Under the pieces are notes generated by a model that saw only the letters and a program-made list of their open reading frames with translations, was not told the DNA's origin and searched no databases. Shown piece by piece: positions 1,123 through 63,745 of a DNA stretch of 64,000 nt. Both the position numbers and the translations under genes were made by a program. How positions within the stretch are numbered: position 1 is the stretch's first letter; each line of letters opens with the position of its first letter. The stretch covers positions 5,567-69,566 of the forward strand of contig JADHVC010000001.1 in NCBI GenBank assembly GCA_016784175.1, given 5' to 3'. This DNA is from Patescibacteria group bacterium. GTDB taxonomy: Bacteria > Patescibacteriota > Patescibacteriia > Patescibacteriales > BS150m-G62.

Positions 1123-2619
1123 TTAAGGACGCTTTTCCTGCCATAAAGGTAAACAAACACTAACATTTTCAACATTTGCTGAATTGTAACAATAATAGCC
1201 TTCATTATCAGTAACCTTCACAACCACATTCATGCTACCACCTTGTAAAAATTTAATTTCACTTGGCGCCATACTCATAGAAGTATTCGGTAAAGCCTGT
1301 TCAAAAGTCCACTCGTAATTACAAAAAGTATCATTACAAGTATGTTGATTGTCACCAGTTTCCGTTTTGTAATACTTTGTATTATCCGTAAAATACACAT
1401 TCTCACCAATATTCGGATATGTTGGCAACCAACTAAAGCTTGGATTTGGGAACTTATGATAATAAGTTGTAAATGTTAAATTTGGGTCAAAAGATTCTGC
1501 TAAATTTCCAGCTATATTATCTGTAACAACATGATTAAGTGCTGAGTCAGTATTAAATTGAAACCAATCTGATTCCTTTTCACGCTCATCCCAAACTTTT
1601 ATCCACCAATAATATGGCGTTCCATACTCCAACTCTGCCGTTGAACTCGCCCCACCATTTGCAAGAGCTGCCTTCAAATTAAACCTATTTGCAACCACTG
1701 TTGTCTGACAAGCAGATCCATCATATCCACCAGAGCATACCCCACCTGAATATGTACCTAAACATTTCCCTGTATCCAACACAGGAGAGCTAGTAGAATT
1801 TGTTGTATTTACAATAATTTGATAGGCCAATTCACAACCTCCAGCATCACGATCAGAAAAATCCCACTCTAAGAATGTTTGAAGCGAGCCATACCCAGAA
1901 CAGCCCTCTTCAAAACTCCAATTTGGAGCTGACAAATTTGCAAGCTCTGGTTTATTATTCACAAAATCACCAACTACTCTATAACCAATAATTAATGGGT
2001 TAGAACAGCCAGCTGGATCATCCTCGCAATTAAAACTTATCCATCCCACACCTACCTCTGAAGCAAGATCGCTATTCGTATTATTCCCATTCCAGCCATA
2101 TCCCCTAAAAAAACCAGTATCTGACTCCGCCCGAAGATTATACAAATCCGTTCCAGTACCACCATCGTGGTCAAATCTTATCCAACCAGAATCTCCAAGA
2201 CTCAATATCTTTGCCCAACCATACACCTTATTATCAATAAAATTATAACAAGCAGAACAGCTATTTTGATCATTACTATCACATGAACTTTCCTCAATAC
2301 ATCCATCAAAAAAACCAGCTGCTGAGCTATATCCATTCTCCTGAAAACTAATCCATCCCAAATTAGGCGACCAAGCATACCCCTCAAAATCACCAGTCAT
2401 TGGTTCCACATTCACTCCATAATTAACACTTCCACATGTAAAAGTATTAGTACAATTAAAACTTATCCAACCAAAATTACCTGCCCAAGCCCAACCATAA
2501 ACATTATCACTTGTATTAGCTTTAGCTACACTAAAACTAGCCAAAAACGTTAAAGCTAGTAAAAAAAATATTTTATTTATAAATAAAGTTTTCATTGTTT
2601 TAATATAATAACCCAACAT
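1123..2619 (-). CDS. secreted Cys-rich repeat protein with four G-W...GWISF repeats
   Basis: Signal peptide MKTLFINKIFFLLALTFLASFSVAKA. Four internal repeats: YGWAWAGNFGWISFNC, GYAWSPNLGWISFQ, YGWAKILSLGDSGWIRF, GYGWNGN..VGWISFNC. Many Cys. Sits between the minor pilins and pilD. Confidence 0.5.
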   Translation of the reverse strand: MLGYYIKTMKTLFINKIFFLLALTFLASFSVAKANTSDNVYGWAWAGNFGWISFNCTNTFTCGSVNYGVNVEPMTGDFEGYAWSPNLGWISFQENGYSSAAGFFDGCIEESSCDSNDQNSCSACYNFIDNKVYGWAKILSLGDSGWIRFDHDGGTGTDLYNLRAESDTGFFRGYGWNGNNTNSDLASEVGVGWISFNCEDDPAGCSNPLIIGYRVVGDFVNNKPELANLSAPNWSFEEGCSGYGSLQTFLEWDFSDRDAGGCELAYQIIVNTTNSTSSPVLDTGKCLGTYSGGVCSGGYDGSACQTTVVANRFNLKAALANGGASSTAELEYGTPYYWWIKVWDEREKESDWFQFNTDSALNHVVTDNIAGNLAESFDPNLTFTTYYHKFPNPSFSWLPTYPNIGENVYFTDNTKYYKTETGDNQHTCNDTFCNYEWTFEQALPNTSMSMAPSEIKFLQGGSMNVVVKVTDNEGYYCYNSANVENVSVCLPLWQEKRP

Positions 2620-3382
2620 ACCAATTTATAAGCTCTGAGCCCCAAAGCATCGTAATAACAGTGGAAAAAGTTAAAAAAACACCAAATGGAACCTCCGAGT
2701 CCATCTTCTTTTTTTTCATCGAGATTAAAGCAACCCCAATTATAGAACCAAGAATATACGAAATAAATAATGCCGCTAATATATTAGGCCAACCTAAGAT
2801 CATACCCATTAAAAATCCAAGCCTAATATCTCCACCCCCTATCCACCGACCACTAGAAACAATAAATTGAATTAAAAAGAAGCTCCCTCCAATTATAGCA
2901 GAAATTAACATACCCGACCAACTAGCTCCTGTTAGTAAGTTTAGCCCAAATATTAGAACAATAGCCGGCAAAGTCACTTTATCCAAAATTAAATAATATT
3001 TTAAGTCATAAATAAAAATCACCACCAATACAGCGATGATAAAAAAGTCACGGAATAGAGCAACAAACGCAACAGCATTATAATTTAAAAAGATATGATC
3101 ATGCCTTAACAAAAAGAACAGAACAAATAATGCCCCCGTAGCCAATTCGACCACAGGGTATTGCCAAGAAATAGATTTTTTACAATGTCGACATCTAGCT
3201 TTCAACCAAACATAACTTAAAACTGGCACATTGTCATACCAATCAATTTGAACCTTACATTTAGGGCACATTGATCTACCATCCACTCTCTTTTGCGCGT
3301 GCAATCGCCAAACAAAACAATTAATAAAACTTCCTATTGAAAGACCCAATATTAAAACTAACAGTATCGAAAATATAAGCAT
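2600..3382 (-). CDS. pilD: prepilin peptidase (A24 family), PilD-like
   Basis: N-terminal tetracysteine zinc-binding region: CPKCKVQIDWYDNVPVLSYVWLKARCRHCKKSISWQYPVVELATG. Polytopic membrane body. Lies in the pilus locus. Confidence 0.85.
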   Translation of the reverse strand: MLIFSILLVLILGLSIGSFINCFVWRLHAQKRVDGRSMCPKCKVQIDWYDNVPVLSYVWLKARCRHCKKSISWQYPVVELATGALFVLFFLLRHDHIFLNYNAVAFVALFRDFFIIAVLVVIFIYDLKYYLILDKVTLPAIVLIFGLNLLTGASWSGMLISAIIGGSFFLIQFIVSSGRWIGGGDIRLGFLMGMILGWPNILAALFISYILGSIIGVALISMKKKKMDSEVPFGVFLTFSTVITMLWGSELINWYVGLLY

Positions 3383-3403
3383 ACTATAATCTTACTAAAA
3401 AAA

Positions 3404-4777
3404 TTACTTACTTCCAAGCCCTTCCATATCTCCACGACTCTCATTGCCAAAAGTAACTCCGACAATCAGTACAGAGATCGGCGTATAGGTTAAAATGTTA
3501 CGCACAATAGCAGTGTAATTCAATACTGCCCAATAAGAATTTGTGAACAAATAAACCGCAAAAAATAACAATATTACCAAAAATAGATAAGCCCATGCAA
3601 AAATTAGATTCTTATCGCACATTATCTTTTTGAAATATACTAAGAATATAATAAAAAATATATACCACCAAACATTAAAACTATTTGTCAAAAAATATGC
3701 TGGCAAAATATTCTGAAATATTTCATAATGCAAGCCAAGCTCACCACCCTCATTCATGATCCCTAAATCATACTTAAACTTAAAAATCTCCCATGGCAAT
3801 GCCATCAAAAATACCACAATAAAATATCTTAATAATAGTCGACATTTCAAATCCCCTAACCTAGACATTAACATTAACATTATAAATACCGCGAAAACGA
3901 ATATTATACTTTCCGATTTAACAAAAAAAGAAATGCCATAAAAAATCGCAGATAGATACAAAAAAATCATTCTCCTTCTTTGTTGCCACATTAAGAGAAA
4001 ACCAAATCCACAAAGAATATAATAACTCAAAATTAAATCAGCATAAGCATTAAAACCATGATAAAAAAATAAAGGCATCGAGCTTAAAAAAAATACCAAA
4101 ACTAGACTATAAAATAGACTAACAAAATTAATCAACAAGCAAGAAAGCACAATAAGAGTAGCCACATAATATCCAAAAAAAATAAAATTAATATATACAT
4201 CATTATACTCACCGATTACATCATGCATCCAAAACTGTACAATTGAAACTAGCCACGGATAATTAGGATGAGATCCTCCTCCTAAATATTCAAAACTATC
4301 ACTATCTGTAAGTTCGACTCCTTGTGAAGAATACAAAAGCTTAGCCCTAAAAGCCCACATAGTAACACTATCGTAGGTTGCGACTGGACGTGAAAATGCA
4401 TTAAACGCAACCATGCTGATTTGAATAAAAATAAATAGCAACATCAATGCCTCCTTCAATCGTATTCTTTCCAACAAATGTGCAATTTTTTTTGCAACAT
4501 ATATTTTCTCATTTCGCACAAATCCTCTTTGATACATATCAGCTAAAATAACATTCTCAATCAATACTAAAAGCCAAAACCAATAAACATCTAGGTTCAA
4601 TTTAAAAAGAAATATCCAAATAAAAATTTGGATTGTAATAAAATACACTCCCACTCCATACGCCAAAGCTAAACGAAACAACAAACTAAATTTATTCTCT
4701 CGCAGAAATATACCAACAAGAAAATACCCTGGCACAAAAATCGAAATAAAAAAAATGGCTAAATTAATAATTATCAT
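3404..4777 (-). CDS. polytopic membrane protein of unknown function (possible GT-C-like partner)
   Basis: 457 aa, at least 10 predicted TM helices, no recognisable soluble domain. Overlaps the downstream GT-C gene by 14 nt, which suggests translational coupling. Confidence 0.4.
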   Translation of the reverse strand: MIIINLAIFFISIFVPGYFLVGIFLRENKFSLLFRLALAYGVGVYFITIQIFIWIFLFKLNLDVYWFWLLVLIENVILADMYQRGFVRNEKIYVAKKIAHLLERIRLKEALMLLFIFIQISMVAFNAFSRPVATYDSVTMWAFRAKLLYSSQGVELTDSDSFEYLGGGSHPNYPWLVSIVQFWMHDVIGEYNDVYINFIFFGYYVATLIVLSCLLINFVSLFYSLVLVFFLSSMPLFFYHGFNAYADLILSYYILCGFGFLLMWQQRRRMIFLYLSAIFYGISFFVKSESIIFVFAVFIMLMLMSRLGDLKCRLLLRYFIVVFLMALPWEIFKFKYDLGIMNEGGELGLHYEIFQNILPAYFLTNSFNVWWYIFFIIFLVYFKKIMCDKNLIFAWAYLFLVILLFFAVYLFTNSYWAVLNYTAIVRNILTYTPISVLIVGVTFGNESRGDMEGLGSK

Positions 4778-6269
4778 ATCTTATTGCTAAAATATTATTA
4801 CTTGGTTTAAAAATACTCACTACCTTAAGATGATATTTAGAAACCAAGAAAGCATCCTCCGGTCTTAAATAGTAAACATCATAAATATTATCTGGGCCTT
4901 TTCTAGTTATAGGGTCAATATCAAACATTCCAAATTTATATCGATAAAAACTAAGTGATGGTGCCAAAATCCAAGTAGAGCCAATCATATGAATGTTTAC
5001 TCCACTCTCCTTTAGACGCGCTATCTTCTCAACCGCTTCACGAGAATTTGCATCATAACCCCATACAAAACTTGAATTATAATTTAATGAATTTAAAAAA
5101 TGAATATAACAAAAAAATATTACCACGATCCCAATAACATTAAAAATATTTTTAACTCTAGCACGACTAGCGATAATGACCATCCACACACCTAAAAATT
5201 GCAACATAAACAAAGGCAATAAGAATATGGCCGCCCGCTCAACTAAGTATCGCGTGCCAAAAAAAATATTTTGAGCCTCAATCCCAAGTAAAATAGAAAC
5301 AATAAGCAAAAGGATCAAACCGAATTCCCTTCTGACAACAAAATATTTACCACATTTCGCCAACACCAATACAATGCCAGTCACCAATTGCATTGATAAA
5401 AAAACCCATGCGATAATCTTAATAATATCGTCTCGATAATTAATACCATATAGTGTTGCTTCAATCAGACTATTAATAGTATCGCTCCATAAATTATTTA
5501 CTCCACCAAAATAAAATTCACCAGAACCATTCATCGCAACAACAGGAAAATAGTAAATTGTTAAAAGTAGTAGCAATGAAGGAACAATTGGAAGCACGAT
5601 TTCATCCCGCACATAGACAAATTTTTGCACAATACTCTTACCACTATTTCTCAGCACCCCAGCTTCAAAGAACAACACAACAACAATACTTCCCAAGTAT
5701 ACATTTAAAAATGCCAAGTTCGACAAGGTCGAGATTGTAAGGCAAGAAAAAACAATAAACAAATATTTTCTTTTTACGCGACCATCATTTAATCCCACCC
5801 ACTTTAAAAAATATATTAAGGCCCAAATAAATGTACCAATTGCCAATGAATACCCACGAGCAAGGGAAAAAAAATCTATAACAAATGGATTTACACTTAG
5901 CAAAACTACACTTGAAAATATTAAGAAATTTTCGTTAAAAAGTTTTTTAGAAATAACAAGCACGCCAGATAAATATAATAGAGCGCCAAATAATACTGGC
6001 ACTCTAGCCACAAACTCATTCAAACCGAATATGGTTGTCGTAAACTTTATCAATAAAGTATTTAGCAAGTGATGATTAGACAAAAGCGAACCCTGAAAAT
6101 ATAAAATATCGTAAAGTGAATTTTGCACATGATACATTACAGTAACTGCCTCATCATGAGTAACTGACAAAAAAACAGAACGCATTAGTGCATACAAAAA
6201 AATTGAAAAAAGAAATAGACTCAATAATGAATCCAAAATACTAACATTTTTTAAACTCTTATAAACCAT
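4764..6269 (-). CDS. GT-C fold glycosyltransferase, ArnT/PMT-like (GT39/GT83-like)
   Basis: 501 aa polytopic protein. An acidic motif sits in the first extracytoplasmic loop (SVTHDEAVTV), typical of polyprenyl-phosphate-sugar-dependent GT-C enzymes. Confidence 0.55.
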   Translation of the reverse strand: MVYKSLKNVSILDSLLSLFLFSIFLYALMRSVFLSVTHDEAVTVMYHVQNSLYDILYFQGSLLSNHHLLNTLLIKFTTTIFGLNEFVARVPVLFGALLYLSGVLVISKKLFNENFLIFSSVVLLSVNPFVIDFFSLARGYSLAIGTFIWALIYFLKWVGLNDGRVKRKYLFIVFSCLTISTLSNLAFLNVYLGSIVVVLFFEAGVLRNSGKSIVQKFVYVRDEIVLPIVPSLLLLLTIYYFPVVAMNGSGEFYFGGVNNLWSDTINSLIEATLYGINYRDDIIKIIAWVFLSMQLVTGIVLVLAKCGKYFVVRREFGLILLLIVSILLGIEAQNIFFGTRYLVERAAIFLLPLFMLQFLGVWMVIIASRARVKNIFNVIGIVVIFFCYIHFLNSLNYNSSFVWGYDANSREAVEKIARLKESGVNIHMIGSTWILAPSLSFYRYKFGMFDIDPITRKGPDNIYDVYYLRPEDAFLVSKYHLKVVSIFKPSNNILAIRYDNY

Positions 6270-16198: not shown

Positions 16199-16339
16199 TA
16201 TTTCACCCCCTTTCTATTATAAATTATTATAAATATTATAAACAAACCTAAATATACATTTATCCACATTATAGCATACGCTAAAGAAACTTTCAACTAT
16301 CTCTTTTCAACATATTATAAACAACCGATCTACGACGCT

Positions 16340-47329: not shown

Positions 47330-48039
<710 letters not shown>

Positions 48040-48059
<20 letters not shown>

Positions 48060-48186
48060 AATCGGATTTCGCTATCATCTCGACCAATTGGTCAAATTTT
48101 ATTTTTGGCTCCCAGCCTAAAATATTTTTAGCCTTTGAATAATCACCCAACACCACGTTCACTTTAATAGTTAAAAAGAATACCAT
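48040..48186 (-). pseudogene. C-terminal remnant (about 40 codons) of an NDP-sugar 4,6-dehydratase (Gmd-like)
   Basis: The translation ..[37 protein letters not shown] matches the conserved C-terminus of GDP-mannose 4,6-dehydratase. It overlaps the fcl start. No upstream body is present. Confidence 0.5.
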
Positions 48187-48205: not shown

Positions 48206-48847
48206 TTAAGAATTACTGATAGCCTCCTGAGCATTAACTATAAAATCATTAGCAATCATACGATTATTCCACAATTTTATTATATTCATAACTAACTTAT
48301 TTTTATCCCCAATATCCACCAATAATCCATTCACATCGTTGGTAATAAATTTCGAATAAGCATCAATATTTGAAGCAATTATTGGCACACCCACCTTCAT
48401 CGCTTGTCTTAATCTATCCTGATTAAACCCCAAAGAATCATTTAGTACAAGCATATCGCTTGCCTTCATTAACTTATATAATTCTACATTATCAAGATTA
48501 GTAGAAAAAAATATCGATTTTCCCAACTCAAGTTCTTTAATTTTTGCCTTAATGCTCTCCTCTTGGTCCAAGCTACCAACAATAATTAATTTAAATCCTG
48601 GATTAGCTTGAATCAACTCTGGCATTATGCCGATAAGAACATCGCAATGTTTTTCTTTATTTGAATTAGTTATCGCAAGCACAATATCACCTTTTAAGCC
48701 TAATTCAATTTTAAGCGTACTTTTTCCTTGTTTTATTTCTGGAATATTAGCAATATGTATTACCTTATCGATAATACTTGCCTCATTTTTCCAATAACCT
48801 AGAACTTTATTTAAAATATTTTTCATATAAACTAACAATTGATTCAA
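48206..48847 (-). pseudogene. glycosyltransferase family 1 (GT4-like) C-terminal domain only, a probable truncated remnant
   Basis: The 213 aa contain the GT-B C-terminal nucleotide-binding half (..LIIVGS...E..LK..SD..V.......G..EA...G.P.I.S). No N-terminal acceptor domain is present. Confidence 0.45.
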
Positions 48848-52675: not shown

Positions 52676-53290
52676 AATTTAAATTTCAAAAAAATACATT
52701 ATCTTTTTGAAATATTAAAAATTTTTTGTAAAAAGTTTTAAACATAAAGAACATACATTTTTTGAAAATTTTATGGCAGTAGAGCTTCGCTCGCTATAAA
52801 ATTTCAAAAAATACCTTATGTTTTTGAAATATTAAGAACTTTTTTGTAAAAAGTTTTAAGCTAAAATATTAAGAACTTTTTTGTAAAAAGTTTTAAGCTA
52901 AAATATTAAGAACTTTTTTGTAAAAAGTTTTAAATCAGTGCTCGTAGCTCAGCTGGATAGAGTGCTTGGCTTCGGACCAAGAGGTCGCAGGTTCGAATCC
53001 TGCCGGGCACACAACATTTGAAATATTAAGAACTTTTTTGTAAAAAGTTTTAAACCTAAAAAGCATACTTTTTTTTAAGTTTTATGGCGGTAGAGCTTCG
53101 CTCGCTATAAAATTTCAAAAAATACATTATGTTTTTGAAATATTAAGAACTTTTTTGTAAAAAGTTTTAAACCTAAAAAGCATACATTTTTTTAAGTTTT
53201 ATGGCGGTAGAGCTTCGCTCGCTATAAAATTTCAAAAAATACCTTATATTTTTGAAATATTAAGAACTTTTTTGTAAAAAGTTTTAAAAT
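52676..53290 (+). repeat. array of tandem AT-rich repeats (about 118-bp long units and 37-bp short units) carrying promoter-like modules TTGAAA-N17-TAAAAA around the tRNA genes
   Basis: The module ttgaaatattaagaacttttttgtaaaaagtttta(a/g) occurs at least 7 times, in intact or degenerate form. The long unit (..aacctaaaaagcatacatttttttaagttttatggcggtagagcttcgctcgctataaaatttcaaaaaatac..) recurs 3 times. Confidence 0.7.
52938..53011 (+). tRNA. tRNA-Arg (anticodon TCG)
   Basis: Folded manually into a 74-nt cloverleaf. 7-bp acceptor stem, anticodon loop cuTCGga, T-loop TTCGAAT. No encoded CCA. Confidence 0.8.
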
Positions 53291-53364
53291 GGCGGCGTAG
53301 CTCAGCTGGTTAGAGCGAAGGAATCATAACCCTTAGGTCAGAGGTTCGAGTCCCCTCGCCGCTA
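53291..53364 (+). tRNA. tRNA with CAT anticodon (Met; initiator, elongator or Ile-lysidine not resolved)
   Basis: 74-nt cloverleaf with acceptor GGCGGCG/CGCCGCU, anticodon loop auCATaa, T-loop TTCGAGT. One mismatch in each of the anticodon and T stems. Confidence 0.7.
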
Positions 53365-53494
53365 CATTAAAATATAAGTCCTCTTTTTGGTAAATAAAGT
53401 TTTCAATGATGTACAGCCCGATCGTTATGCTCGTTTAGTATAGGATCATCATTAAAACAAAACCAAAAAGAGTTCTTTTAAATTTTATAGCATT

Positions 53495-53570
53495 GCCCTT
53501 ATAGCTCAGTTGGTAGAGCAGACGCCTCTTAAGCGTAAGGTCGCAGGTTCGAGTCCTGCTGGGGGCACCA
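53495..53570 (+). tRNA. tRNA-Lys (anticodon CTT), CCA encoded
   Basis: Cloverleaf with anticodon loop cuCTTaa, T-loop TTCGAGT and a 3' ACCA. Confidence 0.8.
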
Positions 53571-53648: not shown

Positions 53649-53689
53649 GATGATTTCGATATTGCACCGAAGTCATCTTTTTTAAATCC
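53649..53689 (+). terminator. intrinsic terminator downstream of the tRNA cluster
   Basis: agatgatttcg-atattgcac-cgaagtcatct hairpin followed by tttttt. Confidence 0.5.
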
Positions 53690-53758
53690 CATTGATAACG
53701 TGCATTATTATAATACTCTATGTATTCCTGAACCATCAAATTAAGCTCATTAAAGGTT

Positions 53759-54166
53759 TTGCATTCTTTGAAAGAAATGAATTATTATCAGCAGAACGAA
53801 TTTGCTAAAGCAGCGGAGGCATATAGACAAGCGCTGGTAATTAAACTTAATGATATTGATATTAATTTTACTCTAGTTGGGGCAGAGTCGGGTGCTAAGC
53901 AGTATCAAGCAGAAAGCAGAACGTTGGACAAGATTTGGCAGATTCAAACCATGGGAATCAAGATGGCGCCATACTATTATTATCGAGCCGAGATATTAGT
54001 CGCGGGAGAGAAATACAATGATGCGCGGGAACAGATTGATAATGCTATAGTGGCCGATAGTAGCCATTCGAAGTATTATCGTTTAAAAATAGACATCCTA
54101 ACTAAGCTAGGTAGATTAAGGGAGGTGAATGCGGTAAAGAAAGAATTAGCAGAGCTGGAGAAGTAG
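53759..54166 (+). CDS. hypothetical TPR-like protein
   Basis: 135-aa ORF, helical-repeat-like (AEAYRQAL.., YYYRAEILVAGEKYNDAREQIDNAI). Higher GC than the core. Confidence 0.3.
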   Translation: MHSLKEMNYYQQNEFAKAAEAYRQALVIKLNDIDINFTLVGAESGAKQYQAESRTLDKIWQIQTMGIKMAPYYYYRAEILVAGEKYNDAREQIDNAIVADSSHSKYYRLKIDILTKLGRLREVNAVKKELAELEK

Positions 54167-54401
54167 GGATTGTCGGTATATTGCCACCACCTTTAAAGCA
54201 TGGCAAGAACTACGTAAATATGGCTATTATAACCTATAGGACGATTCAAAAAGATTGAGGCGATGGATTTTACGGTTAAAGATTTTTCGATGCTCATGGG
54301 GGGCTAGGCGGGCTAGTTTTTGGTAGTATTGAGCGAGAAACTGGTGTAACTTTATAGTATTAATGAAGACTGATTAATTTACATTAATGGTAGTTTAATC
54401 G

Positions 54402-56011
54402 TTGCTTATTGTTTTAAAGGGTGGTAACTTTATATTAAAGTTAAAAAATTATGATTCTATGACTAAAGTAAAAGAGAAAAAACAATCCACCTCTGCCAAT
54501 ATCGGTTTTGAAGAAAAGCTTTGGGCAACTGCTGATAAAATGCGTAATAATATGGATCCGGCTGAATATAAGCATGTTATTCTAGGTCTCATTTTTTTAA
54601 AGTATATTTCCGATTCATTTGAAGAGTTGCATGTTAAATTAAAAAATGATTCGGAAGGACTGGACGATCCGGAAGATAAAGATGAATATAAAGCTGAAAA
54701 TGTTTTTTGGGTGCCAAAAGAAGCTCGTTGGTCATATATTACAATTAACGCTAAAAAACCGGAGATTGGAAAGTTAATTGATGATGCCATGGTTTTAATC
54801 GAAAAAGAGAACCCTAATTTAAAAGGTGTGTTACCTAAAATTTATGCTCGTCATGATTTAGACAAAGTTAAACTTGGAGAAATAATCGACACAATTGGCA
54901 CTATCGGCATGGGAGATAAAGAAAGTAAGTCAAAAGATATGCTTGGTCGTATTTATGAATATTTTATCGGTCGATTTGCTGGAGCAGAAGGCAAAGGCGG
55001 AGGAGAGTTTTTACGCCACAATCAGTAGTTAAATTATTAGTCAGCATGCTTGAGCCATATAAAGGTAGAATTTATGATCCTTGTTGTGGTAGCGGAGGCA
55101 TGTTTGTGCAAAGTGAAAAGTTTATTGAAAGCCACGGTGGTAACAAAGACGATATCGCTGTTTATGGTCAGGAGTCAAATCCAACCACTTGGAGATTGTG
55201 CAAAATGAATTTAGCTATTCGCGGTATTGCTGGGAACATTGGATCAATTCATGCCGATAGTTTTCGTAATGATTTACATAAAGATTTGAAAGCAGATTTT
55301 ATCCTTGCTAATCCACCATTTAACATAAGTGATTGGGGCGGAGAACAGCTTAAAGATGATGTGCGTTGGAAATATGGCATGCCACCAACCGGCAATGCTA
55401 ACTATGCTTGGATAGAGCATATGATCCATCACCTTTCACCAACAGGAATCGCTGGTTTTGTTTTGGCTAATGGCTCTCTTGCGTCTAATACTTCAGGCGA
55501 AGGAGAGATTAGAAAAAAACTTATTCAAAATGGTTTAGTGGACTGCATTGTCGCTATGCCACCACAACTTTTTTATACTACTCAAATTCCGGCTTGCCTT
55601 TGGCTTGTTTCTCGTGATCGCTATGATCATAAACTTCGCGATCGACATAAAGAAATATTGTTTATAGATGCTCGTAAAATGGGTACTATGGTAACTAGAA
55701 AGAATCGCGAATTAACCGATGAAGATATCGCTAAAATTTCTAGTACTTATCATAGCTGGCGTAGCATTAACGGTAAATATGAAGATGTAAAAGGATTCTC
55801 TAAGGCGGCGAACATGGAAGAAGTAGAAAAGAATGGCTTTGTTTTGACTCCAGGTCGTTATGTTGGATCGGATTATGTAGAAGAAGATGACGAAGTGTTT
55901 GAAGAAAAAATGAAAAGATTGACCGGTGAATTGTCAGGACAGTTTAAGCAATCAAAGGAGTTGGAGGAGAGGATAAAGAAAAATTTAGAAAGCATTGGTT
56001 TTAAGATATAA
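54402..56011 (+). pseudogene. hsdM: type I restriction-modification methyltransferase subunit HsdM, disrupted by a frameshift in a T5 run (annotated as two ORFs, 54402-55028 and 55046-56011)
   Basis: An HsdM N-terminal domain (..LWATADKMRNNMDPAEYKHVILGLIFLKYISD) is followed by ..GGGEF. The correct continuation [31 protein letters not shown]...NPPFN is in the -1 frame from the T-run at 55008-55012. One extra T would restore EFFTPQS. Confidence 0.7.
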
Positions 56012-56014
56012 AAT

Positions 56015-56665
56015 ATGTGGTATCTATATTTAGATGAAAGTGGAGATCTGGGTTTCGATTTTGTCAATAAAAAGCCGTCAAAATTTTTTACGGTTACTAT
56101 TTTAGCGTTAAGTTGTCACGATGCTAATCGCCAGTTGATTAAAGCAGTCAAAACCACAATTCGTCATAAGTTAAACAAATCAAAGAATCAAAAAAGAGTA
56201 GCGAAAGAACTAAAAGGTACTGGCACAACACTGGACGTCAAGAAGTATTTTTTTGAAAAGGCTAAGAATGTTAAATTTGGAGTTTACTCTATTACGCTAA
56301 ACAAGAAACGTGTTTTTGAAAAGTTATCTAAAGACAAGTCAAGAGTTTACAACTATATTGCCAGACAAGTACTTGATCAAATTCCTTTTGAAAAAAATAA
56401 TAGTGATCGTGTTGAATTGATTTTAGATAAATCTATGGCCAAACCGGAAATAAAAGAATTTAATGCTTATATAAGACGCCAACTTGAAGGTCGCTTGTCT
56501 CCGAATGTGCCGCTTGATATTTATCATTGGTTATCACATGAGAATTATGGCCTACAGGCAGCGGATTTGTTTTGCTGGGGAATATTCCAAAAATATGAAC
56601 GACAGAATAAGGACTGGTTTAATGTTTTTGCAGATAAGATATTGTTTGATGAACAATTTTTATAA
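56015..56665 (+). CDS. DUF3800 family protein embedded between hsdM and hsdS
   Basis: N-terminus MWYLYLDESGDLGF is the hallmark YxDESG motif of DUF3800. It starts 4 nt after the hsdM stop. Confidence 0.6.
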   Translation: MWYLYLDESGDLGFDFVNKKPSKFFTVTILALSCHDANRQLIKAVKTTIRHKLNKSKNQKRVAKELKGTGTTLDVKKYFFEKAKNVKFGVYSITLNKKRVFEKLSKDKSRVYNYIARQVLDQIPFEKNNSDRVELILDKSMAKPEIKEFNAYIRRQLEGRLSPNVPLDIYHWLSHENYGLQAADLFCWGIFQKYERQNKDWFNVFADKILFDEQFL

Positions 56666-56843
56666 ACAAAAAACCCCTTACGGGGAAGCAACTTTATAGG
56701 TTTGTTGTGTCCAGACTATAGCCAACCGATGGATGGGAATATCTAGAACAACCTATAAAAGATTTACGCTTATTTATAATATAGCATAAAATGATATAAA
56801 AAATCAATAGTTATCCACAGATGGAGAGTAAAAATACAAAAAT

Positions 56844-58085
56844 ATGGCTAATAACCAAACAAAATTTAAAGAAACAGAAATAGGAACCATCCCAGAGGAA
56901 TGGGATGTTTTTGATATTCAAACTGTTTCTGATGTTGTCGGTGGTGGTACTCCATCAACAACAAATAATAATAATTTTAACGGTGAGATTCCGTGGATAA
57001 CACCGAGAGACCTGTCTTCATATCAGGATCGGTTTATTTCCCGTGGTGAGAGATGTATTTCAGAGGAAGGACTTAACTCAAGCAACGCTAAATTATTACC
57101 GGTCAATACAGTTTTATTGACGACAAGAGCCCCTGTTGGGTATCTTGCTATCGCAAAAAATGAAGTTACTACCAATCAGGGATTCCACAGTCTAATTCCA
57201 AACAATAAGACAAATAGTCTTTTTCTTTTTTACCTTTTGAAAAATAATGTTGAAAAACTTATCAGCAATGCTTCTGGTAGTACTTTTCAAGAACTTAATG
57301 GCAAAACACTAAAGTCATTAGAGTTTGCTTTTCCAAGAATTAGCGAGCAAGAACAAATCGCCGAAATCCTTTCCTCTCTTGATGATAAAATAGAACTTAA
57401 TCGTAAAATAAATGCTAACTTAGAAAAGATAGCGAGTGCTTTGTTTAAGAGGTGGTTTGTTGATATTGGCGATGAATTGCCGGAGAGGTGGAAAATGGGA
57501 ACGATTGGAGATTTTGGAAAAGTTAAATCAGGTTTCGCATTTAAGGGAGAATGCTTTAATGATCAAGAGGGAGTGCCGGTTATTAAAATTAAAAATATTA
57601 TTGAGCCAAATGTTGATTTAAATAATGTTGATTATGTTTCTGATGAATTAGTGAACAAAAAAGCAAAAGAGTTCATTCTGGAAGCAGGAGATATTTTAAT
57701 CGCTATGTCCGGCAATACTACCGGCAAGATTGGTATTATGCCTAAGACAAAAAATGATTATGTTTTAAATCAGCGGGTCGGCAAATATTTTTTAAAAGAT
57801 AAAAATAATTTAGGCTATGTATATTTCTATTTAAGAAGCGGCGACATTCAAGAAAATATAATTCAGGCCGCATATGGCAGCGCGCAACCAAATATTAGTC
57901 CAAGTATTCTAGAAAATATAAAAATTATTATTCCCGATAATGCAGCATTAAACACTTTTAATAACGTGGCAAATAATGCTATAGAAATAATTGTAAGGAA
58001 CAATTTTGAAATTAATGTTTTAACAGAACTAAGAGATTCTATTTTGCCTCGATTAATGAGTGGAAAAATAAGAGTAAAAATATGA
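56844..58085 (+). CDS. hsdS: type I restriction-modification specificity subunit HsdS
   Basis: Two target-recognition domains separated and followed by conserved HsdS repeats (..LPEEWDV..., central ..LFKRWFVD.., C-terminal ..LRDSILPRLMSGKI). Confidence 0.85.
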   Translation: MANNQTKFKETEIGTIPEEWDVFDIQTVSDVVGGGTPSTTNNNNFNGEIPWITPRDLSSYQDRFISRGERCISEEGLNSSNAKLLPVNTVLLTTRAPVGYLAIAKNEVTTNQGFHSLIPNNKTNSLFLFYLLKNNVEKLISNASGSTFQELNGKTLKSLEFAFPRISEQEQIAEILSSLDDKIELNRKINANLEKIASALFKRWFVDIGDELPERWKMGTIGDFGKVKSGFAFKGECFNDQEGVPVIKIKNIIEPNVDLNNVDYVSDELVNKKAKEFILEAGDILIAMSGNTTGKIGIMPKTKNDYVLNQRVGKYFLKDKNNLGYVYFYLRSGDIQENIIQAAYGSAQPNISPSILENIKIIIPDNAALNTFNNVANNAIEIIVRNNFEINVLTELRDSILPRLMSGKIRVKI

Positions 58086-58920
58086 ACAATCCAATAAAAC
58101 AACACACGGTGCCTAATTTTTATTTAAAAAACTTTGCAGATAAAAATTTATGTGTTTGGGTATGTGATAAAAAGAAAAAGGAACTCAGGAAGCAACCAAC
58201 CAAAGACACGGCTATAATTAATGATTATTACACATTTATAAATAGTTCGAATGAAAAAGATTATAAAGTTGAAAAGGAGTTATTTGCAAGCACGATAGAA
58301 AAAGAAATGAGTGCCATACAAAATAAAATTTTAAATAATTTGGAATATGATGATAATGATAAAAAAATAATTTGCAGATTTTTAACATTTCAATTTTCGC
58401 GAACAACAAAATTCAAGGAAGATTTTGAAAAAATTTATACAAGCATCTTAGGAGAAACTTTAAATAATAAATTTTGTAATGAAAAAATAAAAAGAATTGC
58501 GTGAGTCCGCATAAAAAATTGCATCTAAGAGCAATGGCTAAATTTTATGAAAAATTTTATAATGCTTTTTTGAAATTAAACTTTTTATTTTTAATAACTA
58601 GTGGAAAGGGCGTTGATCAATTTATTACATCTGATAATCCAGTTATTTTATTTGGCTTTGAAAAGTTAAATGGAAAATTTTATAATTTTAAGACTATTTA
58701 TTTCCCTTTTTCGCCTTCAATAGCATTGTTACTAAATGATAAATGCTTAGGAATAAAAAATATTAATAAACAAAAAACCGAATTATTTAATAGCACAACA
58801 ATAAAACAATCTGATCAGTATTTAATATCTAATAGTCGGAAACTATTATTAAATATAAAGTTAATTACAAAAAGTTACGATCAGGAAAAAATTAAAAAAA
58901 TGATAAGTGAAATTTTATGA
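58082..58920 (+). CDS. DUF4238-like protein, present as two overlapping ORFs (58082-58504 and 58501-58920) embedded between hsdS and hsdR
   Basis: ORF1 begins ..[11 protein letters not shown], the N-terminal DUF4238 signature. ORF2 contains ITSDNPVIL, the central DUF4238 motif. The ORFs overlap by GTGA. The start overlaps the hsdS stop (ATGA) and the end overlaps the hsdR start (ATGA). Confidence 0.5.
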
Positions 58921-61900
58921 CCCACAACTACTACGAATCCGATCTTGAACAAGCTACATTGGAATGGCTGGAAGAGATTGGATATAAAACAATTTATGGA
59001 CCATCCATTGATCCGGAGGCAGAAGATGGAAAGGCAGAAAGAAAAAACTATTCCGAGGTTATTTTAGTTGACCGCTTGAAGTTTGCGATAGAAAGAATTA
59101 ATCCGAATATACCGATAGAGGCACAGCAAGATGCAGTTGATAAAGTTTTAGGCTTGCCTTGGTTAAAGCCGAATTTGGTAGAAAATAATTACGCAATGCA
59201 CAAAATGCTGACCGATGGCGTTGATATTACATATAAAGATAAGGATGGCTTAATGCGTGGCGATAAAGTTTATCTAGTGGACAAAAATAATTTAGATAAT
59301 AATGATTGGTTGGCGGTTAATCAATTTACAGTCAAAGAGGATAATAAAACTCGCAGACCGGATGTTGTTATTTTTATTAATGGCTTGCCACTTGCCATCA
59401 TTGAACTTAAAAATCCGGCAGATGAAAATGCAACCATTATCCAAGCCTATAATCAAATTCAGACTTACAAACAAGATATTCAAACATTTTTTACATATAA
59501 CAGTTTAGTTGTAGTTAGTGATGGCGTTAATACACGCATTGGATCTTTAACTGCCAACGAAGAACGCTTTATGAAATGGCGGACGATTGACGGCTCTGAC
59601 TTAGCTCCTGCCTCTATTCCTGAAATGGAAGTTTTAATTAAAGGCGTATTTGATAAAAAAAGAATTTTAGATATTCTTTTAAATTTTATTATCTTTAATA
59701 CTGACGGAGAAAATACTATTAAAATTTTAGCCGCTTATCACCAATACCACGCTGTAAACAAAGCTGTTATTCAAACAATAGAAGCTACCAAAGAAGATGG
59801 CGACCGGCGTTGCGGAGTGGTTTGGCATACCCAAGGCAGTGGGAAGTCTTTAACTATGGTATTTTATGCCGGTAAGCTCATACAAGTTTTAGATAACCCA
59901 ACTATTGTAGTTTTAACCGATAGAAATGATCTAGATGAGCAATTATCTACTACTTTTTCTTTATGCCAAGATTTAATCAGACAAACTCCGGTTCAAGCAG
60001 AAAGCAGAATGAATTTAAAAGAACTGTTGAAAGTAGCTTCCGGCGGAGTTGTCTTTACTACTATTCAAAAATTTTCTGAAGGTGACGAAATGTTGTCTAA
60101 TAGAAAAAATATAGTAGTTTGTGTAGATGAAGCACATCGATCACAATATGATTTTATGGATGGCTTTGCTCGTCATATGCGTGAAGCCTTGCCCAACGCC
60201 TCGTTTATCGGATTTACCGGCACGCCAATTGAATTAACCGATGCAAACACCAGGGCGGTATTTGGAGAATATATCGATGTTTATGATATTGCTCAAGCAG
60301 TAGAAGATAAAGCGACAGTTCCAATTTATTACGAAGCACGTTTAGCTAAAATTCAATTATTGGAATCAGAAAGACCAAAGATTGATCCAAAGTTTGAAGA
60401 ACTAACAGAGGGAGAAGAAGCGGATAAAAAAGAAAAGTTAAAAAGCAAATGGGCCAAGCTTGAAGCGATGGTTGGTTCAGAAAAAAGAATTGGCCTTATC
60501 GCTCAAGATATTGTAAGCCATTTTAAGCAAAGGTCAGATGTGATTAATGGTAAGGGCATGATTGTAACCATGAGTCGTCGTATTGCAGTTGAACTATACG
60601 ATGAGATTATAAAATTGAGACCGCATTGGCATAGTGATAATGACGAGAAAGGATTTTTAAAGGTAGTAATTACAGGATCGGCAACTGACCCGCTTAATTT
60701 TCAAAAACATATTAGAAGTAAACAAGCGAGAAAAGATTTAGCTAAGCACATGAAAAAACCCAGTAGCGATTTAAAACTGGTGATTGTGCGTGATATGTGG
60801 CTAACTGGTTTTGATGTACCTAGTTTGCATACAATGTATTTAGATAAACCAATGCAAGGTCATGGTTTGATGCAAGCGATTGCCAGAGTGAATAGAATTT
60901 ATAAAGATAAACAAGGTGGTTTAGTGGTTGATTATCTTGGAATTGCCCCAATGTTAAAAGAAGCTCTAGCCTATTACACTAATAGCGGTCGCAACAAACC
61001 AACTATTCCACAAGAGGAGGCAGTATCGGTTATGTTAGAAAAGTACGAAGTTGTTAAGGGTATGTATCATAATTTTGATTATTCAGATTTTTTTAGCAAT
61101 AAAGCCTCAAAAAGAACCAGAGTAATCGCTAGTAGTATTGATTTTATTCTTGGTCTCACAAATGGCAAGAAAAGATACGTTCAAGTTGTTACCGAGCTGT
61201 CCTATGCTTTTTCTTTGTCTGTTCCAAATGAAGAGGCTATTAAAATTAGAGATGAGGTGGCGTTTTTTCAAGTTATTAAAGGAGCAATTGTTAAAATGGA
61301 AGATTTTGAAAAACAAAACAAGAAAGATATCGGCATTCAAGATAGCTATGATCAAGCGATAAAACAAATTATTTCTCATGCTATTACTTCAGATGAGGTG
61401 GTTAATGTTTTTACTGCCGCTGGCTTAAAAAATCCAAATGTTTCTGTTTTATCAGATGAATTTTTAGAGGAAGTAAAGAATCTGAAATATAAGAATTTGG
61501 CCTTAGAAATATTGAAGAAATTATTGAACAATGAGATTAAAACTATGACAAAAAAGAATCTGATTAAATCCAGGTCATTTGCTAAATTACTTCAAGATAT
61601 CATCCGTAAATATCAGAATCAAACGATTGATGCGGCTCAAGTTATTTATGAATTAGTAGAACTGGCTAAGAAGATTAAGAATGAAGAGACTCAAGGAGAG
61701 TCTTTAGGTTTATCAGTTGAAGAAGTGGCTTTCTATGATGCTTTAATTGAAAATGAAAGTGCTGTATTAGAATTGGGAGACGATGTATTAAAACAAATTG
61801 CTAGAGAGCTAGTATCTATGCTGAGAAAGAACACCACCATTGACTGGACATTAAAAGAAAGTATCAGAGCAAAACTCAGACTCTATGTTAAAAAGTTATT

Positions 61901-61997
61901 AAAGAAATATAAATATCCGCCAGATAAACAAGAAAATGCCACGCGGACAGTATTGGAGCAAGCCGAAGTATTATGTAAGGATTGGAGCGGAAAATAG
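58917..61997 (+). CDS. hsdR: type I restriction enzyme endonuclease subunit HsdR
   Basis: 1026 aa. N-terminal nuclease region, SF2 helicase motifs ([24 protein letters not shown]) and a C-terminal HsdR helical domain. Confidence 0.9.
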
Positions 61998-62342
61998 GAT
62001 TTAAAAATTAAAATAAATAATATGACAATCTTAGAAAATTCAATTTTTATTACCACAGAATCCTCAATTACTTTTGGAGCCACTACTATACCAACCTAAT
62101 TTAAACAATCAGATAATCTGTGCGTAAAATCAGAAAGACAATTTTCAGAAGTGTCGTAAAAATTAGTCTGAAATAATAGCTTTGGGATTGAGCATTGTAT
62201 TTTTAGATAATTTTCTTTAAATCCGCCTTTTGCGTCGGCGGTCAAATGCTAGTTTGACACAAATAGAATATTCAAAAATCATGGATCATATATTCTCAAT
62301 ATGAGCTAATAAAGCATCTAGACAACCATTAATTTAAAAAAA

Positions 62343-62384
62343 ATGCAACTTGTATTATGCAACTCGTATTATGCAACTCGTATT
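62343..62384. repeat. three tandem copies of a 14-bp unit (atgcaactYgtatt)
   Basis: atgcaacttgtatt atgcaactcgtatt atgcaactcgtatt lies in the intergenic region downstream of hsdR. Confidence 0.6.
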
Positions 62385-62571: not shown

Positions 62572-63081
62572 TTACTTTGGCACAGTACGCCAAACGCCAC
62601 ATGGCTTACCATTCATATACGTTTGGGTTAGATACATATTTGTGATAGTAATATGTCCGTCTTTTCGGGCTAACCCATATTTAATATTCCTGATTGTCGC
62701 GGTCATAGTGGACTCATTGCCAACTTTAGCAGAAACAAATTGAATTGATTCTCCTTTAAACACATGACGTTCTTTTTGCACATATTGCTCAAATTCAGCA
62801 CGTGACATTGGTATTATTCTTGGACATGGTCCATCGCATGTACTCCTCATCTCTTCTACTGAAAGAAAATCTAAACCTTCTTTCGGTATTGACGACATAA
62901 ACTCTGTAACCTGACCTGTTCCTTGATGTTGATACAAGGAAATTTTTTCTACAATTATTGAGCAAGCATTAATTGCCGTTTCCTCTTTAGACATTTTTTG
63001 TGGTTTGCCAATGCTTGTCGCACAGCCACAGAGCAAAATGGTAAGTAATAAGGTTAATGGTAAAAAACGTTTTTTCCACAT
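62572..63081 (-). CDS. lipoprotein of unknown function
   Basis: Signal peptide with a lipobox (LLTILLCGC|A). 169 aa. Confidence 0.5.
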   Translation of the reverse strand: MWKKRFLPLTLLLTILLCGCATSIGKPQKMSKEETAINACSIIVEKISLYQHQGTGQVTEFMSSIPKEGLDFLSVEEMRSTCDGPCPRIIPMSRAEFEQYVQKERHVFKGESIQFVSAKVGNESTMTATIRNIKYGLARKDGHITITNMYLTQTYMNGKPCGVWRTVPK

Positions 63082-63136: not shown

Positions 63137-63745
63137 TTATAGCAAAGGTATCAAAACCTCCTTTGCTCTTGGCCCTAAAAGCCAAATTTCTTCGCTTCCG
63201 TGTTCATGCTTAAAAACCAACTCCCAATTCTCTAGCTTTTTTAATGCCCTATCCAATAATATATCTGTCAGTCCGCTTATCTCATTTAAAATTTCATTTT
63301 TCGAGCTAGCTCGGTTTTTAGCGATAAGCTGCAATATCTCATGCATATAAGGACGATTCATCACATACGCATCATCAGCCTCAAATTTGCAATCTCTTGC
63401 GGCCAATAAATCCTCCAACATATCCAGCAACATCGCCCAGCGAAATCCGTAGTGTATATCAAAGCTATCTAAAGCGCTACGTCGAGCTGGATCACTTATA
63501 ACAATATCCAAGTGAAGAGCAAGCGAATGTAACTTATCAGTAGAGGCATGTCGCTTTAAAAGCAAACTAACGTTGGTTCTATAGGCAAAATCCAATACTT
63601 TAGCCCCGCACTCGCTCCATTTCTCTATATTCTCAATATGAGCTAATAAAGCATCTAGAGAATCCATTAAAGTGAAACAAAGAATTATAGGATCATCACG
63701 ATCTAAATCAAACGCTACCTTTTTATCGACATCGGGTTTAATCAT
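63137..63745 (-). CDS. hypothetical protein
   Basis: 202-aa ORF. An internal 33-bp segment is duplicated in the intergenic region at 62289-62322. Confidence 0.3.
   Translation of the reverse strand: MIKPDVDKKVAFDLDRDDPIILCFTLMDSLDALLAHIENIEKWSECGAKVLDFAYRTNVSLLLKRHASTDKLHSLALHLDIVISDPARRSALDSFDIHYGFRWAMLLDMLEDLLAARDCKFEADDAYVMNRPYMHEILQLIAKNRASSKNEILNEISGLTDILLDRALKKLENWELVFKHEHGSEEIWLLGPRAKEVLIPLL

Follow-up and report, generated by a model that had tools for sequence, protein, structure and literature searches.

The window, by which we mean the whole 64-kb stretch of the Patescibacteria contig JADHVC010000001.1, carries a type I restriction-modification (RM) operon in which a DUF3800 gene and a DUF4238 gene are embedded, the former accompanied by a structured RNA, DUF3800-V. 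All protein-coding genes of this island lie on the plus strand. An earlier note, made from the sequence alone, had given their order as hsdM, DUF3800, hsdS, DUF4238, hsdR, and the family assignments from Pfam, PADLOC and NCBIfam bear this out; with hsdM, hsdS and hsdR each matched, the type I RM trio is complete as a gene set. The methyltransferase gene hsdM (54459-56011) matches HsdM_N (9.5e-27) and N6_Mtase (8.8e-90) in Pfam and MTase_I in PADLOC. It is followed by the gene of the DUF3800 protein of 216 aa (56015-56665; PF12686, 1.7e-15) and by hsdS (56844-58085), whose product of 413 aa has two target-recognition domains (Methylase_S, 2.8e-58 in two stretches; PADLOC Specificity_I). The DUF4238 gene (58082-58920; PF14022 in two pieces) is read as two open reading frames (ORFs), 58082-58504 and 58501-58920. 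The operon ends with hsdR (58917-61997), which encodes an intact restriction/translocase subunit of 1026 aa with HSDR_N, SWI2_SNF2, T1R_D3-like and T1RH-like_C domains (TIGR00348, 2.3e-188).

The junctions between these genes are as tight as had been claimed. Only 3 nt separate the hsdM stop codon (TAA, 56009-56011) from the DUF3800 start codon (ATG, 56015), and the DUF4238 gene overlaps hsdS and hsdR by ATGA at 58082-58085 and 58917-58920, respectively. Between DUF3800 and hsdS, in contrast, there is a gap of 178 nt. This gap is occupied by the minus-strand gene of the DUF3800-V small RNA (sRNA), and here the earlier inventory, correct in its families and their order, had overlooked the defining partner of DUF3800. 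It was likewise right about the families of hsdM and DUF4238 but not about their state, as both are frameshifted and each reads as two ORFs.

The DUF3800 protein and its convergent RNA

The DUF3800 protein matches PF12686 with 58.4 bits against a cut-off of 21, over profile positions 1-148 of 149; no solved structure was matched by sequence. Its AlphaFold model is confident (predicted local distance difference test, pLDDT, 86.6; predicted template modelling score, pTM, 0.86), and the best structural matches of the model are all type 2 RNase H enzymes, with RuvC and PIWI domains next. RNase HII is the top match, and Foldseek concurs (1eke at 7e-5). With a type 2 RNase H as its best structural match, the model has an RNase H-like fold, which agrees with earlier modelling of DUF3800 (PMC7736814, PMC10910872). 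Four acidic residues, D7, E8, D138 and D184, are invariant in 30 sequences and map in the model to beta1, the end of beta4 and the helix after beta5. To judge from this order of secondary-structure elements, they probably occupy the places of the RNase H carboxylates. The protein as a whole is strongly conserved, with a mean column identity of 77%.

The RNA gene lies on the minus strand at 56668-56773, is about 105 nt long and converges with the DUF3800 gene. In cmscan the Rfam family RF02964 was matched from 56773 to 56684 with 46.1 bits (gathering score 37.4; E 1.2e-7), over model positions 1-96 and without the short P2 helix, which is absent in the window. At its 3' end a CCCCGUAAGGGG hairpin (56685 to 56674) is followed by a U6 run (56673 to 56668) that finishes 3 nt from the DUF3800 stop codon, and the whole stretch folds better than 200 out of 200 shuffles (z -3.7). 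A promoter scan found a sigma-70-like promoter upstream on the same strand (56778-56807, read from 56807 to 56778), consisting of TTGATT, 18 nt and TG-n-TATATT. In most of 48 related loci, boxes resembling TTGACA and TATAcT precede the RNA at a constant distance, and a U run follows it. Because these -35 and -10 boxes are conserved upstream and the U run behind, we regard the DUF3800-V RNA as an independently transcribed sRNA.

The pairing of gene and RNA was followed through other genomes. A scan of one genome per species gave more than 525 DUF3800 loci, the best 80 of which were taken for the counts of module loci given here; L-numbers denote individual loci of this and the other surveys. 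A covariance model of our own, built from three copies and applied to the window and these loci, scored the window sRNA with 117.7 bits and detected a copy in 72 of the 80 loci as well. All 73 matches adjoin a DUF3800 gene, and the model gave no further match in 786 kb outside these gene-adjacent RNAs. In four of the eight loci without a match the contig stops within the gene, which leaves gene and RNA together in 72 of 76 evaluable loci. The RNA always lies on the strand opposite the gene and within about 30 nt of its stop codon, except in L040 (about 100 nt) and L012 (about 150 nt). L012, a Falkowbacteria contig, apparently has two DUF3800 genes about 1.4 kb apart (2485-5153): an ORF of 214 aa at 2485-3129, whose RNA is at 3277-3375, and, where the contig ends, a second copy at 4518-5153.

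The structure of the RNA is supported by covariation. Both partners have changed in 26 of 30 base pairs among 72 distinct sequences, and 91% of the cells pair as against 30-44% with slid partners; none of 500 shuffles reached the observed values, which come from an alignment fitted to the model and hence favouring the structure. With both covariation and a DUF3800 neighbour found, the RNA has what is expected of RF02964. Antisense control of DUF3800 translation by the sRNA was considered and rejected, since duplex energies with the region from -30 to +45 were no better than those of shuffles (28 loci, mean z -0.39). Besides DUF3800-V and tRNAs, the Rfam scan returned no other families.

Directly upstream of the -35 box of the sRNA stands a perfect DnaA-box 9-mer, TTATCCACA (56811-56819, plus strand), one of only two in the 64-kb window, the other being at 16260. 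At -39 to -44, in either orientation, 9 of the 73 loci have a perfect box and 14 of 73 one that deviates at no more than one position, compared with 0.2% of 80-nt windows in the background. The box is conserved in a Patescibacteria-type subclade, with a matching position in L006-L009, L011, L014, L026 and L048.

Spread of the module and its neighbours

The DUF3800 protein has 2292 detectable homologs, the best of which is 100% identical and comes from a Patescibacteria metagenome-assembled genome (MAG). At 50-84% identity, the best 80 loci are spread over Patescibacteria, Omnitrophota, Nitrospirota, Elusimicrobiota, Planctomycetota, Actinomycetes, Nanoarchaeia and Methanosarcinales. Homology between the loci begins at the ATG of the gene and stops just past the DnaA box. 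Such compactness, sharp borders and spread across domains would suit a selfish addiction or mobile element, either toxin-antitoxin (TA)-like or RNA-guided, that lands at the 3' ends of genes, those of mobile RM systems included. Nineteen of the 80 copies do lie no more than 32 nt behind an unrelated upstream gene, and the RNase H fold is common to transposases and RNA-guided nucleases. However, we found no terminal repeats or target duplications at the modules compared, most assemblies behind the best 80 loci have a single copy, a recombinase partner is missing, and the protein of 216 aa comprises the catalytic core only. Targeting of the flanks by a bridge or guide RNA was also rejected, because the longest words shared between RNA and flanks are 7.8 nt for a module's own flanks and 7.5 nt for foreign, non-cognate ones, which is no excess of complementarity. 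We consider a selfish element of this kind unlikely.

The immediate surroundings of the modules are diverse. In the 142 immediate neighbours of the 80 modules 152 Pfam families were found, most commonly N6_Mtase (8) and HsdM_N (5), and RM methyltransferases are the only recurrent class of neighbour; in PADLOC they dominate the recurrent classes, with seven of type I and three of type IIG. In nine loci the gene immediately upstream, at a distance of -1 to 30 nt and in the same orientation, encodes a methyltransferase. Six of these are hsdM genes with gaps of 2-30 nt (L009, L015, L018, L021, L051 and L072), among them the distant HsdM of a Nanoarchaeia MAG (L018), and three are type IIG enzymes at -1 to 4 nt (L026, L048 and L073). 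Type I RM genes were found nearby in 10 of the 80 loci (L009, L015, L018, L020, L021, L033, L051, L072, L078 and L084), while about 85% of the DUF3800-V modules have no RM neighbour. L009 has the order of hsdM, DUF3800 and RNA seen in the window, with hsdM, hsdS and hsdR intact, but its additional ORFs beyond these are different. Between RNA and hsdS, the bacterial L009 (6825-7895) and L018 from Nanoarchaeia (3573-4668) have two small ORFs (164-182 aa) that are missing from the window, and one of those in L018 has a weak HEPN_RiboL-PSP match.

A survey in the reverse direction, of the 80 closest metagenomic relatives of the window hsdM, showed that both junctions of such operons can hold additional genes. 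ORFs are present at the hsdM/hsdS junction in 20 of 60 and at the hsdS/hsdR junction in 25 of 39 related operons; among their products are GmrSD (5), Schlafen/AlbA_2 (4) and other DUF3800 subfamilies (4), and further YhcG, RhuM, AbiEii-like ATPases, Shedu and TIR. This cargo matches published embedded defence genes (PrrC, PMC12707154; TgvAB, PMC11411939; 10.1101/2024.01.29.577857). Neither the DUF3800-V module nor the DUF4238 gene of the window occurs in any of the 80 relatives. Recurrence of DUF3800 in RM operons, for which the earlier note had proposed a survey, was nevertheless found in two forms: hsdM directly upstream in 6 of the 80 modules, and other DUF3800 subfamilies as 4 of 80 embedded ORFs, in the hsdM/hsdS slot of L159 and the hsdS/hsdR slot of L123, L131 and L139. 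In the last three a different subfamily of 236 aa follows directly after hsdS. The ORF after it has the same orientation and about 170 aa in L131 and L139, but the opposite orientation and 196 aa in L123. Known DUF3800 RNA motifs were sought in Rfam beside the DUF3800 genes of these four loci, and the idea was dropped as none was found nearby. For the 236-aa DUF3800 of L123, L131 and L139, the partner may be a protein and not an RNA.

These surveys bear on the possibility that DUF3800, DUF4238 or both are suicide modules of the PrrC kind, coupled physically and functionally to the type I RM complex, silenced by the Hsd proteins and released when a phage inhibits the RM enzyme. PrrC of the EcoprrI type IC RM system is also an accessory nuclease, and its gene is embedded in an hsd operon with which it is co-transcribed. 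The tight coupling in the window, with its 3-nt spacer and two ATGA overlaps, points in this direction, as do the methyltransferase genes directly upstream, which are the only recurrent context of the module (six hsdM and three type IIG loci), and a relative of DUF4238 near hsdR-YgjP (L087). However, PrrC is found almost only within type I RM systems (10.1101/2024.01.29.577857) and is regulated by the RM protein (PMC12707154), whereas the DUF3800-RNA module is mostly found outside RM systems, being near type I RM genes in 10 of 80 loci, and travels with an RNA partner. The folds differ too, with an RNase H-like fold in the window DUF3800 and an ABC-ATPase plus nuclease domain in PrrC. The partner retained in 95% of the loci is the RNA and not an Hsd protein, hsdM reads as broken in the window where DUF3800 and RNA are intact, and DUF4238 protects E. 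coli by itself (PMC9122126). Obligate coupling of the PrrC kind is improbable, given that RM neighbours are lacking for about 85% of the modules and that the module is absent from all 80 closest hsdM relatives. For those modules docked behind methyltransferase genes a PrrC-like RM dependence is possible, but it is not the general rule. The suggestion in the earlier note that the two inserts are RM-linked defence candidates therefore survives in part: both families are tied to defence and DUF3800 recurs in RM systems, but the share of modules without RM neighbours and the lack of the module in the 80 hsdM relatives speak against a fixed RM linkage.

DUF4238, the frameshifts and the flanks

Pfam PF14022 matches the DUF4238 gene at positions 1-111 (1.5e-22, 80.7 bits) and 163-280 (7e-14, 52.3 bits), one match per fragment. 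The earlier statement that this family has no assigned function is out of date: DUF4238 has been experimentally validated as a single-gene anti-T7 defence in E. coli (Rousset et al. 2022, PMC9122126), and PADLOC has a model for it, DUF4238-Pers, which the window gene matches weakly (E 0.0012). The family is treated as mobile between contexts in surveys of defence systems (PMC12629846). Although it belongs to the same PF14022 as the validated genes, the window copy is frameshifted and about 45% identical to its nearest intact relatives. Close relatives are few (5, the best at 45% identity); one adjoins hsdR-YgjP (L087) and another lies in an island with SocA, helix-turn-helix and resolvase genes. 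The GC content of DUF4238 is 23.7%, about 10 points under that of its operon neighbours (33-37%), which suggests that it was acquired separately from the hsd genes. The predicted model of an intact homolog was too poor for a fold assignment.

A 1-nt deletion near 58501 splits DUF4238 into ORFs of 140 aa and 139 aa in different frames. Its homologs are single proteins of 272-325 aa that read IKRIEVHPHKN, and the window reads IKRIA* and VSPHKK in an alignment with the intact P0121-P0124; a single intact ORF of about 270-325 aa is thus missing from the window. In hsdM, a 1-nt deletion in the T run at about 55007-55011 leaves the ORFs 54459-55028 and 55046-56011. The gene is split because the T run of GAGTTTTTACG is one T short: it holds five, and the conserved hsdM motif of the relatives requires six. 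The frame is open in L009 and in all of the 80 closest metagenomic relatives. A programmed frameshift was rejected, since an X XXY YYZ heptamer is lacking at the site and none of the relatives is out of frame. Hence, as sequenced, hsdM does not encode the intact methyltransferase subunit that modification and restriction need, and the RM system may be dead, with the DUF3800-RNA unit intact. In L015, a Saccharibacteria MAG, the hsdM gene directly upstream of DUF3800 (403-1961) is also frameshifted into two ORFs, with its HsdM_C match split between frames.

Could the entire operon be a decaying and functionless RM remnant, with the embedded genes as inert passengers and the broken frames as a sign of pseudogenisation of the island? 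The two frameshifts, the similar damage in L015 and what lies upstream of hsdM can be read in this way. Between tRNA-Lys and hsdM, at 53759-54400, a TPR ORF of 135 aa with a TTG start has the appearance of a gene remnant, and a non-coding stretch of 235 nt comes after it. Nevertheless, the operon retains intact DUF3800, hsdS and hsdR (1026 aa) genes and an intact sRNA, and the DUF3800 protein is strongly conserved. In addition, an NAD-epimerase (GDP-fucose-synthase-like) gene on the minus strand, unrelated to the operon, is broken at an A8 run (47628-47635) into the ORFs 47592-48059 and 47330-47743, and this homopolymer frameshift at 47.6 kb hints at assembly indels. The argument that frameshifts confined to the island prove real decay was rejected for this reason, and the frameshifts of the window fit assembly indels or general decay alike. 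Decay of the whole island appears to us the least credible of the alternatives. Beside the split epimerase gene lie a C-terminal fragment of 48 aa from a dehydratase-like gene (48040-48186) and a short glycosyltransferase ORF (48206-48847). This minus-strand stretch (47330-48186) points either to the decay of a polysaccharide gene cluster or to several homopolymer assembly errors.

It had also been claimed that the island is visibly GC-rich and that this, together with its place next to a tRNA cluster, is consistent with horizontal acquisition. The tRNAs are indeed there, with tRNA-Arg, tRNA-Met and tRNA-Lys at 52938-53570 ahead of the operon. However, the GC content of the island is 33.9% against 32.9% in the rest of the window, a value equalled or exceeded by 16 of 112 windows of the same size; no integrase domain was found by Pfam in the island ORFs, and no att-like repeat of the 3' end of tRNA-Lys was found. 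We therefore rejected a tRNA-integrated genomic island.

Several repeats were observed around the operon. A repeat of about 83-117 nt with the core TTGAAATATTAAGAACTTTTTTGTAAAAAGTTTTAA is present five times around and upstream of tRNA-Arg and tRNA-Met (52800-53310). Two of the copies, spaced 117 nt, are 97% identical, and the five may be repeated tRNA promoter cassettes. A 15-nt inverted repeat with 93% complementarity (53679-53693 and 61993-62007; TTTTTAAATCCCATT and AATAGGATTTAAAAA) coincides almost exactly with the borders of the RM island, though it may be due to chance because the DNA is AT-rich. In the non-coding stretch after hsdR a 14-nt unit, ATGCAACTYGTATT, occurs in three tandem copies (62343-62384). 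A 37-nt repeat with 97% identity is present at 62289 and 63626 (to 63662). The two minus-strand ORFs downstream of hsdR (62572-63081 and 63137-63745) have no Pfam match.

The DUF3800-RNA module as a proposed RNA-gated nuclease

Taking the evidence together, we think that the locus is probably a type I RM cargo operon with two independent accessory modules, the first of which would act as an RNA-gated nuclease. The hsdM/hsdS and hsdS/hsdR junctions of this RM clade would serve as cargo slots. The first slot would hold a unit of about 0.8 kb made up of the DUF3800 gene and the convergent sRNA of about 105 nt, which has a strong promoter and a terminator of its own; the unit would be autonomous and would move horizontally between phyla. 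Its protein would be an RNase HII-like D-E-D-D nuclease expressed through coupling to the upstream methyltransferase gene. The abundant structured RNA may bind the nuclease and either keep it inactive or confer specificity on it, in the way that multicopy single-stranded DNA (msDNA) holds retron effectors, the DUF3800 effector of type VII retrons included. If the RNA or its transcription were lost or altered upon infection, the nuclease would be freed and would cut nucleic acid, with an abortive or defensive outcome. The second slot would hold DUF4238, a member of a known single-gene anti-phage family that appears to be inactivated here by its frameshift.

The proposed role of the RNA is modelled on two known kinds of system, retron effectors with their msDNA and type III TA systems, and by this analogy we favour a nuclease that is held or specified by its RNA. 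DUF3800 is an effector domain of type VII retrons and a CRISPR accessory (PMC7736814, PMC10910872, PMC13594972), in the latter role of Cas12a2, Cas12a3 and Cas13 systems. Type VII retrons (Mestre et al. 2020, PMC7736814) share with the island a DUF3800 protein with an RNase H2-like model and a structured nucleic acid encoded next to it. The RNA of the island, however, is a plain sRNA. Pfam found no reverse transcriptase domain in the island ORFs, and Rfam found DUF3800-V and tRNAs only. The subfamily in the window also keeps Q181-x-x-D184 and D138, whereas the QxxD motif of the retron clade lacks its conserved Q, and DEDD is replaced by DEED there. With the type III TA systems ToxIN, CptIN and TenpIN the proposed mechanism shares a nuclease neutralised by a dedicated abundant sRNA, as well as horizontal spread. 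Their antitoxins, however, are tandem repeats encoded upstream on the same strand, while the RNA in the window is a single structured unit encoded downstream on the opposite strand, and the ToxN-type fold differs from the RNase H fold of DUF3800.

Several points weigh against our proposal. The step in which the RNA acts as inhibitor is pure analogy, and a defensive role of DUF3800-V and of this DUF3800 subfamily is putative. The DUF3800 protein matches no PADLOC v2.0.0 model, and most modules adjoin ordinary genes (MFS, Pyr_redox, ArsP, RadC-N, a hydrolase, KilA-N) and not obvious defence islands. Only one locus of the subfamily was found in 2.9 million viral contigs, a near-absence which fits a function for the host but is no proof of defence. 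Furthermore, a dead RM system is itself uncertain, because the epimerase gene at 47628-47635 is likewise broken and the frameshifts may be assembly errors.

Part of this picture is already known. That type I RM operons carry embedded cargo is established from PrrC, from TgvAB (PMC11411939) and from the guilt-by-embedding approach (10.1101/2024.01.29.577857), and both DUF families have been described. Like TgvAB and the genes embedded in type I RM, BREX and DISARM systems (PMC11411939; Payne et al. 2024), the window has independent cargo between hsd genes, but here the cargo is a protein plus a non-coding RNA, and the protein is outside PADLOC v2.0.0. DUF3800 genes were associated by Weinberg et al. 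2017 (PMC5737381) with 11 RNA motifs for which no function was stated. The DUF3800-V motif of that study agrees with the RNA in the window, which scores above threshold, has a DUF3800 neighbour and a Rho-independent terminator, and lies on the opposite strand, an orientation described there as possible. As far as we could find, this analysis adds a convergent geometry that does not vary, conservation of the promoter, the DnaA box and the recurrent docking behind RM methyltransferase genes; in a literature search we did not find the convergent architecture, the docking or the box described.

The interest of the locus lies in the RNA-nuclease module and not in RM embedding as such. More tentatively, DUF3800 and DUF3800-V might represent a new two-part class of immune or addiction systems, in which a dedicated, strongly expressed and structured sRNA gates or guides a minimal RNase HII-like nuclease. 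The repeated placement behind RM methyltransferase genes would then reflect a functional link, the nuclease being a back-up that fires when methyltransferase expression or RM function is disturbed, and replication status might be a further input, through the DnaA box at the sRNA promoter of the Patescibacteria-type subclade. This docking offers a genomic clue to function, and the unit of about 0.8 kb, with its 216-aa protein and an sRNA of about 105 nt with defined promoter and terminator, is a compact test object. If the pair is no RNA-gated nuclease, the locus is one more type I RM operon with cargo, partly degraded. If it is, a widespread orphan RNA class would be explained and a protein-RNA type of defence would be added to those known.

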